Shown: in pieces, positions 5,362 to 54,496 of the stretch | Numbering within the stretch: the first letter of the stretch is position 1 | Layout: every line of letters begins with the position of its first letter | Assembly (NCBI GenBank): GCA_035512635.1 | Contig: DATKDR010000010.1 | Span: 55 to 64,054 of the forward strand | DNA length: 64,000 bases | Direction of reading: 5' to 3' | Source of the DNA: Longimicrobiales bacterium | GTDB taxonomy: Bacteria; Gemmatimonadota; Gemmatimonadetes; Longimicrobiales; RSA9 | The notes under the pieces: generated by a model | What the model saw: the letters and a program-made list of their open reading frames with translations, nothing else | The model's database searches: none | What the model was told of the DNA's origin: nothing | Translations under genes and position numbers: made by a program

Positions 5362-6261
5362 TCAGCGGCCGGTGCGCTCCTCCCTCGGAAAACTGCCCAG
5401 CACACGCAGGAGGCTGGCGCGACGCCGTACTTCGCCGAGCGCCGCTGCGGTGCGCTCGTCGTCGGCGTCCGCGTCCAGATCCATGAAGAAGCGGTAGGTC
5501 CAGGGCTGTCCCGTCGGTCGCGACTCGAGCCAGGACAGGTTGAGACGCCGCTCGGCGAACGCCGAGAGCACGCCGACGAGGGCGCCCGGCCGGTTGTCGA
5601 CCTCGACCAGCAGCATCGTCTTCATGGGCGGTCGCCTGCCGGTCTCGTCGGCGGTCGCGGCGATGGGACCCGCGCGCCCCCCCTTGGCCGAATCGGGTGG
5701 CGGCGCGGCCAGCAGGAGGAAGCGCGTCTGGTTGTCGGCCCGGTCCTCGATATCCCGGGCGATGACGGCGAGTCCCGACGTTTCCGCCACCCATTCACCG
5801 GCAATGGCGGCCAGCGTGCGATCTCCCGCTCGTGCCACTTCGTGGGCTGCGCCAGCGGTGTCGTAGGCGGATTCCGCCCGCACACCGGGCCGCGACCGGA
5901 CAAAGCGAGCGCATTGCGCGAGTGCGATCGGATGGGAGAGCACGCGCTTCACAGCATCTACGTCGGTGCCTTCCATCCCGAGCAGCGCGTGGTGGATCGG
6001 CAGTATCGTCTCCGCGACCACGCGCAGGCCGGTGTCCGCAAGCACCGCGAGCGTGTCCGGCACGCTGCCGGCCAGCGTGTTCTCGATGGGCAGGAGCGCA
6101 TGGTCCGCCTCGCCGCGTTCGACGGCTGCCGCGGCATCGCGTGCCTCGCGTTTCCCACGGGTGCGCGCACCGGCGGGGAAGAGACGGGCGATGGCGCGCT
6201 CGCTGTACGCGCCCGCCTCTCCCTGGAATGCCACGACGGGCGCGGGGTCGGATCGACTCAT
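5362..6261 (-). CDS. pheA: Prephenate dehydratase
   Basis: 299 aa from ATG 6261. Motifs IENTLAGSV, NQTRFLLL and a C-terminal ACT region with WLESRPT. Confidence 0.85.
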   Translation of the reverse strand: MSRSDPAPVVAFQGEAGAYSERAIARLFPAGARTRGKREARDAAAAVERGEADHALLPIENTLAGSVPDTLAVLADTGLRVVAETILPIHHALLGMEGTDVDAVKRVLSHPIALAQCARFVRSRPGVRAESAYDTAGAAHEVARAGDRTLAAIAGEWVAETSGLAVIARDIEDRADNQTRFLLLAAPPPDSAKGGRAGPIAATADETGRRPPMKTMLLVEVDNRPGALVGVLSAFAERRLNLSWLESRPTGQPWTYRFFMDLDADADDERTAAALGEVRRRASLLRVLGSFPREERTGR

Positions 6262-6268
6262 GGTGGGC

Positions 6269-6297
6269 AGGGTTATCTGGATGCGTCGCGGCGTCAA
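6269..6297 (-). promoter_or_regulatory. Candidate promoter of pheA (TTGACG-N17-AACCCT), 7 nt from the ATG
   Basis: Read on the minus strand: -35 at 6297-6292 and -10-like box at 6274-6269. There is no Shine-Dalgarno before ATG 6261. Confidence 0.4.
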
Positions 6298-6357
6298 GCC
6301 GGGTGCCGGCGGCGGATCCACGGACGCCGCCCCGGCCGTCCATCCGGCCCGGCGGCC

Positions 6358-6387
6358 TTGCCATCGATCGACCCTCCATCGTACCAT
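6358..6387 (+). promoter_or_regulatory. Candidate promoter TTGCCA-N18-TACCAT, 6 nt from the leader-peptide ATG
   Basis: -35 at 6358-6363 and -10 at 6382-6387, with the ATG at 6394. This implies a leaderless leader-peptide transcript. Confidence 0.4.
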
Positions 6388-6393
6388 AGCCCC

Positions 6394-6489
6394 ATGACGA
6401 GCGATCGGTCGGGCAGCAACGCCTTCTTCCGCAACTACTTTACCACGCCCCGTGGTACGGGTCGTGGCTGGAGGCGAGTGCGCGGCTGA
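6394..6489 (+). CDS. Candidate aromatic-rich leader peptide MTSDRSGSNAFFRNYFTTPRGTGRGWRRVRG (31 aa)
   Basis: F11 F12 Y15 F16 are clustered (6424-6441) and W26 follows. A terminator lies downstream and DAHP synthase follows that. This ORF is the tail of a long antisense shadow ORF in the track. Confidence 0.5.
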   Translation: MTSDRSGSNAFFRNYFTTPRGTGRGWRRVRG

Positions 6490-6524
6490 GCGCACGCTGA
6501 ACCGGCTGGAAAACGGCCCGTGCC
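6443..6524 (+). promoter_or_regulatory. Alternative RNA structures of the putative attenuator
   Basis: Hairpin CCACG-C-CCCGT GGT ACGGG-T-CGTGG at 6443-6467. GGTACGGGTCG (6454-6464) can instead pair with CGGCCCGTGCC (6514-6524; 11 bp including 2 G-U), which sequesters the 5' arm of the terminator. Confidence 0.5.
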
Positions 6525-6545
6525 TGATCGGCACGGGCTTTTTTT
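6516..6545 (+). terminator. Rho-independent terminator in the 5' leader of DAHP synthase
   Basis: GCCCGTGCC (6516-6524), loop TGATC, GGCACGGGC (6530-6538), then T7 (6539-6545). It ends 30 nt before ATG 6575. Confidence 0.8.
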
Positions 6546-6574
6546 GTTTTCACTACCCCTGATGGAGCTGAGCC

Positions 6575-7630
6575 ATGATCGTGATTACACGTCCGGGAGT
6601 GACCGACGGCGAGATCGACCAGATCCGCGAACGCGTGGAGGCGCTGGGCCTGCGCACGCACATCATCAGGGGAGAGAACCGCATCGTGGTGGGATGCATC
6701 GGCGACGCGACGCGTGTGGACGAGCTGTCCGCGTTGCGTGCGCTGCCCGGGGTCGACGCGGTCGTACCCGTCTCCAAACCGTACCCCCTGGCCGCGCGCG
6801 TTTTCGGAGAAGAGGCTCGGATGGTACGAATCGGCGACCGCGCCCGCACGACGATCGGCGGCCTCGAGCTCGTCGTGATCGCGGGTCCATGCGCGGTCGA
6901 AGGGCGCGACATGCTGATCGAGACGGCGCAGGCGGTTCAGCGCTCGGGTGCGCGCATCCTGCGCGGCGGCGCTTTCAAGCCGCGTACCTCGCCCTATTCC
7001 TTTCGCGGCCTGGGCGTGGCGGCGCTCGAGATGCTTGCCGAGGCGCGCGAGGCGAGTGGCCTCCCCGTCGCAACCGAGGTGATGGACACGCGCGAAGTCG
7101 AGCGAGTGATCGAGTACGCGGACATACTCCAGATCGGCGCGCGCAACATGCAGAACTACCCGCTCCTTGCCGAGGTGGGCCGGGTGCAGCGACCGGTGCT
7201 GTTGAAGCGCGGGCTCTCCGCCACGATCGGCGAACTGCTGCTGGCAGCCGAGCACGTGATGGCACAGGGGAACCTCGACGTCATCCTGTGCGAGCGTGGC
7301 ATACGCACGTTCGAGACAGCGACCCGAAATACGCTGGACGTCGCGGCGATTCCGGTTCTCAAGAGCGAAACACACTTGCCGGTGCTGGTCGATCCGAGCC
7401 ATGCCGGAGGCAGGCCGGAGCTGGTCGCACCCCTTTCTGCGGCCGCAATCGCTGCGGGGGCCGATGGCCTCATGGTCGAGGTCCATCCGAATCCCGCGGA
7501 AGCGCTGTCCGACGGTGATCAGGCGCTCACGATCGACGGATTCGCGGACCTCATGAGGCACTTGCGGCCGTTCGCGGCCGCCGCGGGGCGCGAGCTGCCG
7601 GCCACGATGCGGCGGGAGCAGGCGGCATGA
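6575..7630 (+). CDS. 3-deoxy-7-phosphoheptulonate (DAHP) synthase, type I-beta with N-terminal regulatory domain
   Basis: 351 aa. Motifs [14 protein letters not shown] and [13 protein letters not shown] at 6564-6567 precedes the ATG. Confidence 0.9.
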
Positions 7631-7920
7631 CGATCCCGGCGGCGAACAGCTCCAGCGCCATCGGCCAACTGCGCTGCGAAATCGAGGAAACCGACCGCGC
7701 CATCGTCGATCTGCTCGCTCGGCGTGTCGGTCTGGCGCGGCGCATCGGTGGCGAGAAGGCCTGCGCGGGCAAGCCGACGCTCGACCCCGCGCACGAGGCT
7801 CGCGTCGTCCGCCGCGCCGCGAGCTTCGCGCGCGACGCGGGCCTGGATCCGGAGATCGTGCGCGACCTCTACTGGCATCTGGTCCGGCTCTGCCGCACGG
7901 CCCAGCTCGTGGACCGGTGA
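7627..7920 (+). CDS. Chorismate mutase (AroQ class)
   Basis: 97 aa. [27 protein letters not shown] is typical of AroQ helix 1. ATGA overlap with DAHP synthase. Confidence 0.8.
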
Positions 7921-7947: not shown

Positions 7948-8745
7948 TTACGAGAACTTCGCCTCGCGCTTCGCAGTGAACGCCTCGTACGCCTCGCGGA
8001 AGTTCGGGTCGAGCATGCACGCGGCCTGGATCTGCGTCTCCCACGCCATCGCGGACTCGAGGTCCATCGACCATTCGCGGTCGAGCGATTCCTTGGTCAC
8101 GGCCAGGCCGAAGGACGGCCCGCGCGCGAGCCGCCCCGCCAGCGCCGTGGCCTCGCCCAGCGCCGCGCCGTCCGGTACCACGCGGTTGTAGAGCCCGATG
8201 CGATGCGCCTCGGCGGCATCGATGAAGTCACCAATCATGAGCAGCTCGCTCGCACGGCCGTGGCCGACCAGGCGCGGCAGCAGCCAGGAGGCGCCCATGT
8301 CGGCTCCGGAAAGGCCGACCTTCACGAACAGGAAGGCGATCTTCGCCGATTCGGCGGCGATGCGGAGGTCGCACGCGGCGGCCATCACGGCACCCGCACC
8401 GGCGACCGTGCCGTTCAGCGCGGCGACCACGGGACGGCGGCACCTGCGGATCGCCGCGACCAGATCGCCGGTCACGCGCGTGAAATCGAGCAGCCCCTGA
8501 TAGTCGCGCTCGAGGAGGGGGCCGATGATGTCCTCGACGTCACCGCCCGAGCAGAATGCGCGGCCGGCCCCGGTGAGCACGATGGCGCGTACACCGGGCT
8601 CGGCGTCCAGGGCGATAAACGTGTCGCACAGCTCCTTGTAGACATCGAACGTGAGCGCGTTCAGCCGTTCCGGCCGGTTGAGCGTGATCGTCGCGACGCC
8701 GCTGCGCGCATCCAGGCTGTACAGGAAGCTCTTGGGACTGATCAT
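7948..8745 (-). CDS. Enoyl-CoA hydratase/isomerase (crotonase) family
   Basis: 265 aa. Motifs ITLNRPERLNAL and GAGRAFCSGGD. Confidence 0.85.
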   Translation of the reverse strand: MISPKSFLYSLDARSGVATITLNRPERLNALTFDVYKELCDTFIALDAEPGVRAIVLTGAGRAFCSGGDVEDIIGPLLERDYQGLLDFTRVTGDLVAAIRRCRRPVVAALNGTVAGAGAVMAAACDLRIAAESAKIAFLFVKVGLSGADMGASWLLPRLVGHGRASELLMIGDFIDAAEAHRIGLYNRVVPDGAALGEATALAGRLARGPSFGLAVTKESLDREWSMDLESAMAWETQIQAACMLDPNFREAYEAFTAKREAKFS

Positions 8746-30676: not shown

Positions 30677-30706
30677 TTGTCGGCGCAGGGCGGCGCGCTC
30701 TACAAT
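30677..30706 (+). promoter_or_regulatory. Candidate promoter TTGTCG-N18-TACAAT, 6 nt from ATG 30713 (leaderless)
   Basis: -35 at 30677-30682 and -10 at 30701-30706. There is no SD between the -10 and the ATG. Confidence 0.5.
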
Positions 30707-30712
30707 GCTGCC

Positions 30713-32839
30713 ATGGTCTCTTCCCGCGACGACGCCGTTCGGCGTCGAGCGTGCCGCGCGCTGCTGCTCGCCGCGGCGCTGCTGCCGCTGCCCGCCTGCG
30801 GACGTCCCGCTCCCGAAATGCCGCCCGCGCCGCGACGTGTGGACTCGGCGGAGCACTATCGCCCGCTGGACGGTCTGCTCAAATCGGCCAGGCTTCAGCA
30901 ACTGGTCGATTTGCAGATCGACCGGAATGGTGAAGCGCTCGCCGCAGCGCTCGGCGATGCCGATCCGCGCGTCCGCGCGCGGGCCGCGTTCGCGCTCGCT
31001 TCGGTGCAGGATACGCTCGCCGTCCCCTCGCTGACCCCGCTGCTGGCCGATGCGGATCCGCTCGTGCGCGCGGATGCCGCGTTCGCGCTCGGCCAGACGC
31101 CGACAGCCGGCGGCGCCGCCGCGCTGCTGTCTGCGACGCTGACCGAAGCGGATACGACGGTTCTCCTGGTGATGCTGGATGCGCTCGGCAGGGCGGGAGG
31201 CGCGGCGGAGCTGGATGGGCTGGCCGGAGCGGAGCTGGCGCCGTCGTACGATGAGGCGCACGCGATTGCCGGCGCGCTGGCGCTGGCCTACGCTCGCTTC
31301 GCCATGCAGGGCATTTACGACGAGGAGGCGATGGAGTGGCTCGCCGGCGGTCTGAGCGCGGATTCGTCGGTCGTGCGGCGGAACGCCGCCTACTACTTCG
31401 CGCGCTCGCGCGATGCGGGATCGTGGGCAGGCGAGCGGCGCATGCTGGCGCGCGCGCTCGACCACTACGCGTTCGCGGACCGCGCCGCGATGCATCTGCT
31501 GACCGCGCTCGCGCGACTGGATGAAGCGGACGATGACCCGCGCTTCGTCGAGTGGCTGTCAGCCTCGCCCGACTGGGCAATCCGCGTGCATGCGGCCCGT
31601 GCGCTCGGGCAGCGCCCGGAGAGCGGGGAAGCGCGGGCCGCGCTGTTGACCGCGCTCGGCGATTCGTCGCATCACGTGCGGTCGGTGGCGGCGGCGGCTC
31701 TCGCGCAGGCATCGCTGACGACGTTCGACGCGGAAACCCTCATCTCGCGCCTGCCGGCCTTCAGGGAGGAGCCCGTCGTGCACGGATCGCTGCTGCGCGC
31801 GATTGCGGCCGCGGGCAGGGGCGACTGGGTGCTGGAGCACTGGTACACGCTGTCGGATGCGCGGCTGCGCCGGTCCGGCCTGGCCGCGCTCGCGCGGGTG
31901 CCGGGGCGTGCGGGCTTCGCCGCGCTCGAGCGCGCCGCACAGAACGCCGACTCCACGGTTGCGTCCGCGGCGGTCGAGGCGCTCGCGCAACGCCGCGCGC
32001 TGGACATCGAGGACGTCGGCGAGCCGCGCTATTACGCCGTTTTCACGAACGCGCTGCGGACCCGCGACCTCGCCGTCATGTCCGCGGCCGCCGGCGCGCT
32101 CGCCGACAGCGCGTTCGAGCCGCTCGGCGCGGGTCCCGCGCTCCAGTCGATCTTCCTCCAGCTTCGCGCGCCGGACCAGCTCGATGCGATGGTCGCCATC
32201 GCGGAGGCGCTGGGCGCGCTGCGCGACCGGACCGCGGAGCCGCTGCTGCGCGAGGCGCGCGCGAGCACCTGGGCGCAGCTGCGCACGGCCGCGGCCGGCG
32301 CCCTCGCGCGCATCACCGGTGAGCCGGAAGCCCTGCCGGCCGGCGATCCGCCCCCGACCCCGATGATGCAGTGGGACTGGCTGGCGCGGTGGGGCACGGC
32401 TCCGCGGCTCCGACTCGAGACGGAGCGCGGCACGATCGTGATCGAGCTGTCGGCGGAGCAGGCGCCGCTCACCGTACAGACGGTGCTCCAGCTCGCGAGC
32501 GATGGCCGCCATGACGGAGTACCCTTCCATCGCGTGGTGCCGAACTTCGTCGTCCAGGGGGGCGACGTGGAGCGCGGGGACGGCTGGGGCGGGCCGGGTT
32601 TCGCCATGCGCAGCGAGTTCACGCGTCTCCCCTTTCTGCGCGGCAGCGCCGGCATGGCGAGCTCCGGCAAGGACACGGAAGGCTCGCAGTACTTCCTCAC
32701 GCACGGCACGCAGCCGCACCTGGATGGCCGGTACACGTCGTTCGGGACGGTCGTCGAAGGTCTCGAGGTGCTGGACGCGATACGCGTCGGCGATCGGGTG
32801 CTGCGGGCGACCATCGCGCCCACGCCGGGCCTGCCCTGA
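30713..32839 (+). CDS. HEAT-repeat lipoprotein fused to a C-terminal cyclophilin-type peptidyl-prolyl isomerase
   Basis: 708 aa. Lipobox LPLPAC. Repeated DPRVRARAAFAL-type HEAT units. C-terminal FHRVVPNFVVQGGD and SSGKDTEGSQYFLTH. Confidence 0.8.
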   Translation: MVSSRDDAVRRRACRALLLAAALLPLPACGRPAPEMPPAPRRVDSAEHYRPLDGLLKSARLQQLVDLQIDRNGEALAAALGDADPRVRARAAFALASVQDTLAVPSLTPLLADADPLVRADAAFALGQTPTAGGAAALLSATLTEADTTVLLVMLDALGRAGGAAELDGLAGAELAPSYDEAHAIAGALALAYARFAMQGIYDEEAMEWLAGGLSADSSVVRRNAAYYFARSRDAGSWAGERRMLARALDHYAFADRAAMHLLTALARLDEADDDPRFVEWLSASPDWAIRVHAARALGQRPESGEARAALLTALGDSSHHVRSVAAAALAQASLTTFDAETLISRLPAFREEPVVHGSLLRAIAAAGRGDWVLEHWYTLSDARLRRSGLAALARVPGRAGFAALERAAQNADSTVASAAVEALAQRRALDIEDVGEPRYYAVFTNALRTRDLAVMSAAAGALADSAFEPLGAGPALQSIFLQLRAPDQLDAMVAIAEALGALRDRTAEPLLREARASTWAQLRTAAAGALARITGEPEALPAGDPPPTPMMQWDWLARWGTAPRLRLETERGTIVIELSAEQAPLTVQTVLQLASDGRHDGVPFHRVVPNFVVQGGDVERGDGWGGPGFAMRSEFTRLPFLRGSAGMASSGKDTEGSQYFLTHGTQPHLDGRYTSFGTVVEGLEVLDAIRVGDRVLRATIAPTPGLP

Positions 32840-54381: not shown

Positions 54382-54496
54382 TTGGCAGCTCCTGAGCGAG
54401 GTCGGGGAACGCGGAAAGATCAAAAAAGCGTCCCGGGCCGGTGCGGCCGGGGACGCTGATTCGCTTGCGATCGGGTGGCGCGACGCCCGCTAAGGC

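Follow-up and report, generated by a model that had tools for sequence, protein, structure and literature searches.

A probable leader-peptide attenuator with a putative leaderless start before the aroF-chorismate mutase operon of a Longimicrobiales bacterium

In a 64,000-nt stretch of the genome of a Longimicrobiales bacterium of the Gemmatimonadota (assembly GCA_035512635.1, contig DATKDR010000010.1, positions 55 to 64,054; henceforth referred to as the window), a gap of 313 nt separates two divergent genes of aromatic amino acid biosynthesis. One encodes prephenate dehydratase (ATG at 6261, minus strand) and the other, aroF, a type I-beta 3-deoxy-D-arabino-heptulosonate 7-phosphate (DAHP) synthase (ATG at 6575, plus strand). 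Why does this gap contain a short open reading frame (ORF) crowded with aromatic codons and, after it, a strong transcription terminator? An earlier note, made from the DNA letters, had proposed that the two form an attenuator over aroF and chorismate mutase. We consider it likely that the operon of aroF and chorismate mutase is indeed controlled by this element through ribosome-mediated, leader-peptide transcription attenuation, a reading supported by comparative units, frame-specific codons, gaps in multiples of three and constrained folds. The mechanism is already known and the window leader is an unannotated case of leader-peptide attenuation, which would extend the textbook scheme to the Gemmatimonadota (Longimicrobiales) and to the entry enzyme of the shikimate pathway, here a DAHP synthase of type I-beta.

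Computation yields directly the parts of the element, their conservation, a reading-frame signature and mutually exclusive pairings. Inspection of the sequence located all the elements that had been listed, at the positions given for them. The leader ORF (6394-6489, plus strand) has 31 codons and a UGA stop, encodes MTSDRSGSNAFFRNYFTTPRGTGRGWRRVRG and ends 85 nt before the aroF start. Its regulatory codons, TTC TTC CGC AAC TAC TTT (FFRNYF), occupy 6424-6441, and a Trp codon lies at 6469-6471. Among the 262 ATG-initiated ORFs of 20-60 amino acids on both strands of the window, this is the only one with at least four F, Y or W within six residues, so the ORF and cluster picked out earlier are unique among the short ORFs of the window. 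The peptide has no exact match in a collection of 15 billion proteins, and the same holds for all four leader peptides that we looked up; it has thus never been called as a gene. Leaders of 26-31 codons are missed by gene finders and are not in Rfam.

Scanning and folding identified an intrinsic terminator at 6515-6545 (plus strand). A 10-bp stem (6515-6524 with 6530-6539) closes a 5-nt loop (GGCCCGTGCC/TGATC/GGCACGGGCT, 6515-6539; -21.6 kcal/mol) and is followed by seven T at 6539-6545, which bears out the strong terminator with a T7 tract described in the earlier note. From the end of the T-run to the aroF ATG there are 29 nt. U-tract intrinsic terminators appear to be rare in this genome fragment. 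Only seven runs of five or more T occur on the two strands of the 64 kb and two of them adjoin a strong hairpin, the aroF leader terminator being one.

Upstream of the ORF, a promoter scan found a -35-like hexamer TTGCCA (6358-6363) and, after an 18-nt spacer, a -10-like hexamer TACCAT (6382-6387) that ends 6 nt before the leader ATG (6394). This plus-strand box is the sole promoter-like site between 5800 and 7000, where 0.1 is expected. Matches to the full arrangement TTGnnn-N16-18-TAnnnT-N6-7-RTG number two in the whole window, both strands counted, as compared with 0.7 in shuffles.

The upstream regions of aroF in relatives were searched, as the earlier note had suggested, by scanning one genome per species as well as metagenome contigs, and by ten look-ups of contigs with close DAHP synthase relatives. 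A short ORF with an F/Y/W cluster plus terminator, on the same plan, recurs in at least 20 further Gemmatimonadota units. We analysed 21 units including that of the window (window 6394-6489; L001, L002, L004, L005, L083, L085-L088, L161, L164, L166-L168, L170-L174). All 21 have a TTGnnn box beginning 35-37 nt before the leader ATG and a -10 hexamer ending 6-7 nt before it, with a match to TAnnnT in 17 (both boxes were assigned by eye in L171). The leader ORF is always 26-31 codons long with its F/Y/W cluster within codons 6-19. A stable terminator-like hairpin starts 101-127 nt after the ATG in every unit, and a T-run follows it in 19. The units are always co-oriented with, and directly upstream of, either aroF or a phenylalanine-hydroxylase (PAH) gene that forms one operon with aroF, and their 5' neighbours vary with context (pheA, M1 peptidase, methyltransferase, GAF or CHAT proteins, and others).

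The aromatic codons of these ORFs are strongly frame-specific: 119 aromatic triplets are in frame versus 17 and 27 in the other two frames (binomial p = 5e-25, although the 21 units are phylogenetically related and this and our other p-values overstate their independence). Gaps within the alignment of the nine closest leaders are multiples of three. In the same nine leaders the aromatic region varies through F/Y exchanges and synonymous changes, and the 3' half of the ORF is kept at the nucleotide level. The combination points to a translated sensor fused to an RNA switch and not to a functional small protein.

Could the ORF nonetheless be there by chance, beside a terminator whose only task is to shield aroF from transcription arriving from upstream or from the divergent side? 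Spurious ORFs are abundant in high-GC DNA, and an alternative frame in the same gap (GTG, 6452-6562, ...GTGFFCFHYP) displays FFCFHY merely by reading the T-run. We rejected this second frame as a leader: its aromatic codons are the terminator T-run, its start lies within a pairing segment of the switch (segment 2, below) and it has no promoter. Such a coincidence is scarcely credible for the 31-codon ORF, given its uniqueness in the window, the at least 20 further units and a strand-specificity control. Upstream of the same type of DAHP synthase, a short aromatic ORF was found on the sense strand at 46 out of 149 loci and on the antisense strand at 6; for the GC-rich subset of loci the counts are 31 versus 0. 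The comparative data effectively refute the coincidence.

The RNA between 6394 and 6550 is highly structured (-80.9 kcal/mol, z = -5.06 relative to dinucleotide shuffles). Segment 1 (6420-6447), the 5' side of an anti-antiterminator, overlaps the Phe/Tyr codons and pairs in the minimum-energy fold with segment 2 (6451-6476), which contains the Trp codon. Through 6454-6471, segment 2 can instead pair with segment 3 (6502-6524 in constrained folds), and 6515-6524 of segment 3 is also the 5' arm of the terminator. The 1:2 domain (6418-6478, -29.4 kcal/mol) forms together with the terminator in the free full-length RNA. A smaller hairpin that had been proposed for 6443-6467 does exist, being the minimum-energy fold of that 25-mer (-14.8 kcal/mol), but it is only a sub-register of the larger 6420-6447:6451-6476 domain, which includes the Phe codons. 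Likewise, the 11-bp antiterminator proposed between 6454-6464 and 6514-6524 pairs as described (-20.3 kcal/mol) but was drawn too short. RNAfold extends it to 12 bp (6454-6465:6513-6524) plus 6 bp (6466-6471:6502-6507), with -31.5 kcal/mol in total. Only 1.7% of dinucleotide shuffles of segment 2 pair with segment 3 as well as the real segment does.

We modelled a stalled ribosome by masking a 28-nt footprint with the A site on F12, Y15 or F16, using a transcript truncated before the 3' arm of the terminator. At each of the three positions, the minimum-energy fold of the window transcript is the antiterminator. Free and constrained folds thus reproduce the alternatives of the 1:2, 2:3, 3:4 logic that the earlier note had drawn. 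After segment 2 and ahead of segment 3 comes a small spacer hairpin (GUGCGC/GGCUGA/GCGCAC, 6478-6495), whose loop holds the leader stop codon (6487-6489). RNAalifold suggested another hairpin, in which segment 2 pairs with the region of the stop codon (2:2'); we set it aside, as it reaches only -11.0 kcal/mol in the window and is not the preferred fold.

Which amino acids would such a switch read? The earlier claim that the leader senses all three aromatic residues finds no support at this locus, as the Trp codon sits in segment 2. In constrained folds a ribosome on W26 covers that segment and leaves the terminator intact, so Trp would not be sensed here. In class-A relatives UGG alternates with CGG and CGU at this codon, and RNAalifold pairs the position with G. 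The folding models thus assign to the window leader the reading of Phe and, to a lesser degree, of Tyr, and not of Trp. In other lineages Trp lies within the cluster itself (WYRYF, FRWFYYF, YRYWSWSF).

The same alternatives were assessed across the family. The free full-length RNA retains the core terminator stem in 21 out of 21 units. With a ribosome on the cluster codons and the transcript again truncated before the 3' arm, the terminator 5' arm is mostly paired in all 21, and its partner is in most units the segment just 3' of the cluster. Segments 2-4 are lineage-specific in sequence: ACGGGCCG goes with CGGCCCGUG, CGGGAGYCC with GGGCUCCCG, and GGGGCUGGAGGC with GCCUCUGGCCCC. Cognate 2:3 duplexes are more stable than non-cognate duplexes between lineages (-28.4 versus -23.8 kcal/mol; permutation p = 0.0025), as are cognate 1:2 duplexes (-26.1 versus -21.4 kcal/mol; permutation p = 5e-5, 10 units). 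In the RNAalifold alignment, one loop-proximal pair of the terminator shows a compensatory change (GC in four sequences, AU in three).

Several observations weigh against the attenuator, in addition to the kinship of the units noted above. For roughly two units out of three, the truncated RNA already has the antiterminator as its minimum-energy fold when no ribosome is placed on it. Equilibrium folds thus fail to separate the stalled from the free state in these units and the switch cannot be demonstrated thermodynamically; the decision must be kinetic or depend on ribosome position, for example on the stop codon between segments 2 and 3. GC-rich RNA also pairs strongly by chance, as the non-cognate 2:3 mean of -23.8 kcal/mol illustrates. 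The closest class (nine aligned sequences) shows no variation in the core of segments 2, 3 and 4, and classical covariation is almost absent there. Only two pairs show a double change by RNAalifold, just one of them within the terminator stem, and the invariance makes covariation uninformative in this class.

The leader is also absent from some relatives, as the scanned upstream regions of L003, L081, L082 and L084 have none. L082 (900-1037) and L084 (1860-2000) do have a promoter-like TTGAC box before aroF, and also a hairpin (GAGGCUCCCG...CGGGAGCCUC) whose U-run is weak, but no aromatic ORF, and in L081 aroF immediately follows pheA on the same strand. Two units, in L166 and L167, have a second promoter-like box between the leader terminator and the first gene, in both cases the phenylalanine-hydroxylase gene. 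It is near consensus (CTTGAC-N17-TATAGT; L166:595-640, L167:600-640) and is followed by a 5' untranslated region (UTR) of about 125 nt. Finally, the best scores in a permissive Rfam search of 6200-6650 lie well below cut-off (Thr_leader 28 bits, cut-off 55; Leu_leader 17.8 bits, cut-off 50), which are driven by the terminator.

Known leader families offered nothing closer. Phe_leader and Trp_leader gave no match at E-values up to 10 (6200-6650), and at gathering scores neither the window nor 12 related loci matched any Rfam model. T-box and riboswitch covariance models likewise gave no match in either search. These results bear on a different explanation, in which the RNA is a translation-independent switch, such as a riboswitch, a T-box-like tRNA sensor or a TRAP/PyrR-like protein-binding leader, and the ORF is incidental. 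The strong structure of the RNA, the nucleotide-level invariance of some of its parts in class A and the lack of a Shine-Dalgarno sequence before the ORF would all suit it. We nevertheless judge it quite unlikely. Besides the missing T-box and riboswitch matches in all 13 sources, the ATG is fixed at 6-7 nt from the -10 box in 21 out of 21 units, frame and ORF length survive insertions and deletions, and the aromatic triplets keep to one frame. Furthermore, F/Y/W codons are retained precisely where the RNA varies.

How, then, would the ORF be translated? In none of the 21 units, that of the window included, did we find a Shine-Dalgarno sequence ahead of the leader ATG, whereas the aroF genes have one. 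With a -10 box ending 6 nt upstream, the first transcribed nucleotide would be the A of the ATG or one beside it, giving a leaderless mRNA, and judging from this spacing the leader is probably translated from such a transcript. The earlier note had described the same TTGCCA-N18-TACCAT box, 6 nt from an ATG that lacks a Shine-Dalgarno sequence; this description is correct, and its spacing of 6-7 nt recurs in all 21 units. The fixed promoter-ATG spacing would make the family a clean and testable case of leaderless attenuation outside the Actinomycetota, with a bearing on how early a ribosome couples to RNA polymerase.

From these parts we infer a transcription start, leader translation, ribosome stalling and read-through in the following order. 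Transcription would begin on the A of the leader ATG (6394) or on a neighbouring nucleotide, and a 70S ribosome would initiate on the leaderless 5' end and translate the 31 codons. When charged Phe- and Tyr-tRNA are ample, the ribosome would pass the FFRNYF codons and reach the UGA at 6487, and segment 1 would re-pair with segment 2 behind it. The terminator at 6515-6545 would then form and RNA polymerase would stop at about 6545, 30 nt short of aroF. When either charged tRNA is scarce, the ribosome would stall at codons 12-16 and cover segment 1. The freed segment 2 (6454-6471) would pair with 6502-6524 and sequester the 5' arm of the terminator, and this antiterminator would permit read-through into aroF and chorismate mutase.

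We also considered that the unit is a stand-alone transcript of about 150 nt, either a trans-acting small RNA or a small-protein gene, with aroF expressed independently. It has its own promoter and a strong terminator, and in L166 and L167 there is the second promoter-like box 3' of the terminator. Two complete units can moreover stand in tandem (L171, L173), and attenuator-derived RNAs can act in trans, as does rnTrpL of Sinorhizobium (PMC6614838). In the window, however, the 29 nt between the T-run and the aroF ATG leave no room for a separate aroF promoter. A stand-alone RNA would also leave unexplained why the unit is always co-oriented and right before aroF or PAH-aroF while its 5' neighbours vary, and why the codon content of the leader tracks the end product of the operon. 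A small-protein gene, for its part, fits poorly with a peptide that outside the aromatic cluster is kept as nucleotides and not as amino acids. An independent transcript is therefore unlikely, and a role in trans on top of attenuation is possible.

The tracking of codon content is seen in the Phe:Tyr ratio. The 13 units whose operon includes tyrA (prephenate dehydrogenase) have 16 Phe and 51 Tyr codons, as compared with 21 Phe and 15 Tyr codons in the eight units without it (Fisher p = 0.001, uncorrected for phylogenetic kinship). In L166, whose operon comprises the genes for PAH, DAHP synthase, chorismate mutase and prephenate dehydratase (PAH-aroF-CM-PDT, the route to Tyr via Phe), the leader is Tyr-only.

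In the tandem arrangement, two full promoter-leader-terminator units precede a single aroF-chorismate mutase-tyrA operon, and each unit is equipped with a separate -35/-10 box at 6-7 nt from its ATG. The units of L173 (1045-1184 and 1315-1462) encode MSIHARTSYRGYRYYGFPIGSPGRGARV and MSLHTRTFESGDRYYRFPTGAPELAARV, and those of L171 (1041-1185 and 1317-1461) encode MSICARNGYRGYRYYGFPNGTPGSAARD and MSIHARSCFSGYRYYRLPHGTPEVAARV.

The end of the leader is conserved as well. The leader terminates in -R-[G/D/V]-stop, encoded by ...GCGCG(G/A/T)(C/G)-stop, in 16 of the 21 units (window 6475-6489), and in relatives the ending GCGCG(G/A)C-UGA is kept. It is shared by both structural classes, which differ in segments 2-4. 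The conservation may reflect slow termination, a pause signal or shared ancestry. This unusual conservation, along with the location of the conserved nucleotides in a hairpin loop in the window, could be taken as a sign of nascent-peptide arrest, in which the peptide would sense a free amino acid or stall at its stop codon as TnaC does, independently of the supply of charged tRNA. However, variation in the C-terminal part is not focused on third codon positions (W/R through U/C at position 1, T/M/V, D/G), which indicates constraint at the level of the RNA. The N-terminal and cluster sequences are free to vary as long as the cluster remains aromatic, and where the cluster lies with respect to segments 1 and 2 suits stalling at the level of codons. 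Arrest by the nascent peptide is thus very unlikely. None of the explanations that compete with leader-peptide attenuation accounts jointly for the frame-specific aromatic codons, the fixed promoter-ATG spacing and the constant place before aroF.

We compared the window leader to described systems. It resembles the enterobacterial trpL-trpEDCBA, pheL-pheA and pheM-pheST attenuators in having a short leader ORF, clustered codons for the end product and 1:2, 2:3 and 3:4 pairings, as well as an intrinsic terminator immediately ahead of the leading structural gene, with ribosome position making the decision. In contrast to them, it has no Shine-Dalgarno sequence and is apparently leaderless, its codons are mixed Phe/Tyr and not homopolymeric, and its stop codon is placed after segment 2, ahead of segment 3, instead of between 1 and 2. 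It also governs a type I-beta DAHP synthase and chorismate mutase, and shows no sequence or covariance-model similarity to the enterobacterial Phe_leader or Trp_leader.

By analogy of logic, the nearest functional precedent is the aroR leader upstream of aroF in Corynebacterium glutamicum. That organism belongs to another phylum (Actinomycetota) and its aroF enzyme to a different DAHP synthase class; aroR-aroF attenuation there has reportedly been studied by Neshat et al. in 2014, whose work PMC11802643 summarises. The aroR leader, to which PMC4046766 first drew attention, contains Phe-Tyr-Phe; its attenuation is experimentally established (PMC11802643, PMC4046766) and responds to Phe limitation (PMC11802643). 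It shares with the window leader a mixed Phe/Tyr cluster, a DAHP synthase operon and ribosome-mediated attenuation, which is a likeness of logic only. A predicted motif, uORFC-13-1, precedes aroF in Acholeplasma (Brewer et al. 2021, PMC8632094) and similarly places an upstream ORF with Phe codons and an intrinsic terminator before a 3-deoxy-7-phosphoheptulonate synthase gene. It differs in being AT-rich, in having a ribosome-binding site and in a U-run that codes for Phe only, and is a prediction confined to Acholeplasma and environmental sequences.

Leaderless sensing has parallels in the Actinomycetota. Poly-Cys leaderless small ORFs of mycobacteria are sensory ORFs (bioRxiv 10.1101/834739), and the ilvB leader of C. 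glutamicum is translated without a ribosome-binding site, as PMC4046766 reports from Morbach 2000. As in these systems, the window ORF would lie at the 5' end of its transcript without a Shine-Dalgarno sequence, and stalling on clustered codons would remodel the downstream RNA. The window differs from them in its output, a canonical intrinsic terminator well apart from the aroF ribosome-binding site, and in amino acid and phylum. In the library searched, no paper joins leader peptides or attenuation with Gemmatimonadota. Naville & Gautheret 2010 is silent on aro genes, and Seliverstov 2005 names them only in its reference list.

Short aromatic ORFs of other kinds precede the same type of DAHP synthase outside the Gemmatimonadota. 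Loci of the Solirubrobacterales/Thermoleophilia type (L020, L022, L026, L032, L035, L038, L046, L048, L051, L052, L055, L057, L061, L067, L070, L071, L112, L117, L126, L134, L145, L151, L152, L154) have a different ORF, ending ...Y(A)WRF(S/I)-stop about 130-300 nt before aroF. Its W-R-F-S-stop codons lie inside a conserved hairpin, CGCCUGGCGAUUUAGCUAGGCG, and a simple scan revealed no U-run terminator in most of these loci. These ORFs may represent a separate, undescribed family of aromatic leaders.

At eight further loci (L029, L104, L121, L128, L054, L156, L143, L079), mostly from Chloroflexota plus metagenome contigs without an assigned taxon, ORFs of 11-13 codons end in PA-stop about 130-230 nt before aroF. 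Examples are MSTFFFYRTPA, MTRFYWFTDPA and MNVPYWYPSPA, and the Chloroflexota pattern is M..FFFY..PA-stop. Most of these loci have a long helix and a GCAGAGG...CCUCUGC U-run terminator 3' of the ORF. The ORF of L029, the sole example examined in this respect, has a short 5' UTR with GGAG and is not leaderless.

Other aromatic ORFs, unrelated to the preceding ones, occur before the same DAHP synthase in L016, L045, L115, L097, L010, L012, L063, L091/L095, L150 and L157, which derive from Calditrichota, Clostridia, Acidobacteriota, Anaerolineae, Gemmatales and unclassified contigs; MASTERLNHFFGFYFGYYYWTQ and MSKLFNNNFDCYYYFGYFYGENNF... are examples. A terminator follows the ORF in eight of these and was not detected in L091/L095. 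We discarded the 'LLRRSSFVKLLGSYPAATTP' ORFs found before aroF in Anaerolineales loci, which are most likely the C-terminal end of the upstream gene and not leaders; we take them to resemble the C-termini of prephenate dehydratases.

A broader reading can be put forward only tentatively, and we do not hold it to be the probable one. The Gemmatimonadota would possess a large, unannotated family of leaderless aromatic attenuators, whose mix of Phe, Tyr and Trp is tuned to the end product of the operon (Tyr-rich with tyrA or PAH, Phe-rich elsewhere) and in which tandem duplication is possible. The -R-[G/D/V]-stop ending would be a programmed slow termination that parks the ribosome between segments 2 and 3 and so enforces termination when amino acids are ample. 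Analogous, unrelated leaders would have arisen repeatedly before DAHP synthases of type I-beta in five or more other phyla. If this is true, the type I-beta DAHP synthase class is a hotspot of convergent attenuator evolution and attenuation can couple to 70S initiation on a leaderless 5' end. Irrespective of that reading, the 21 units, together with the Thermoleophilia and Chloroflexota families, could seed new RNA and leader-peptide families and improve the annotation of metagenome-assembled genomes.

The genes around the element were annotated using Pfam and NCBIfam, and the earlier assignments of aroF, chorismate mutase and pheA are confirmed by the matches. The aroF product (6575-7630, plus strand) belongs to the type I-beta DAHP synthases and carries a ferredoxin-like regulatory domain at its N-terminus (DAHP_synth_1, 5.7e-82; DAHP_snth_FXD, 2.4e-20; NF006421, 468 bits). 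Its Shine-Dalgarno sequence, GGAG (6564-6567), lies 7 nt 5' of the ATG and is clear of the terminator. The protein matches with 100% identity one annotated in a metagenome-assembled genome of a Longimicrobiales bacterium, which places the window in the Gemmatimonadota. Apart from the source contig, no aroF relative with more than 75% protein identity is among the matches listed. The chorismate mutase gene (AroQ/CM_2; 7627-7920, plus strand) overlaps the aroF stop and closes the operon, since the gene that follows (7948-8745) is convergent. On the other side of the gap, the divergent pheA (5362-6261, minus strand) encodes prephenate dehydratase with an ACT domain and is outside the attenuated transcript.

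Two further features of the window, which has a GC content of 69.9%, recall parts of the element. The other canonical hairpin with a T-run is on the minus strand at 54390-54432, where GCGUCCCCGGCCGCACCGGCCCGGGACGC is followed by T6. The other match to the promoter-ATG arrangement, TTGTCG-N18-TACAAT, ends 6 nt before the ATG at 30713 of a 708-aa ORF (30677-32839 including the box, plus strand), and by its sequence this ORF is a second candidate leaderless gene of the organism.

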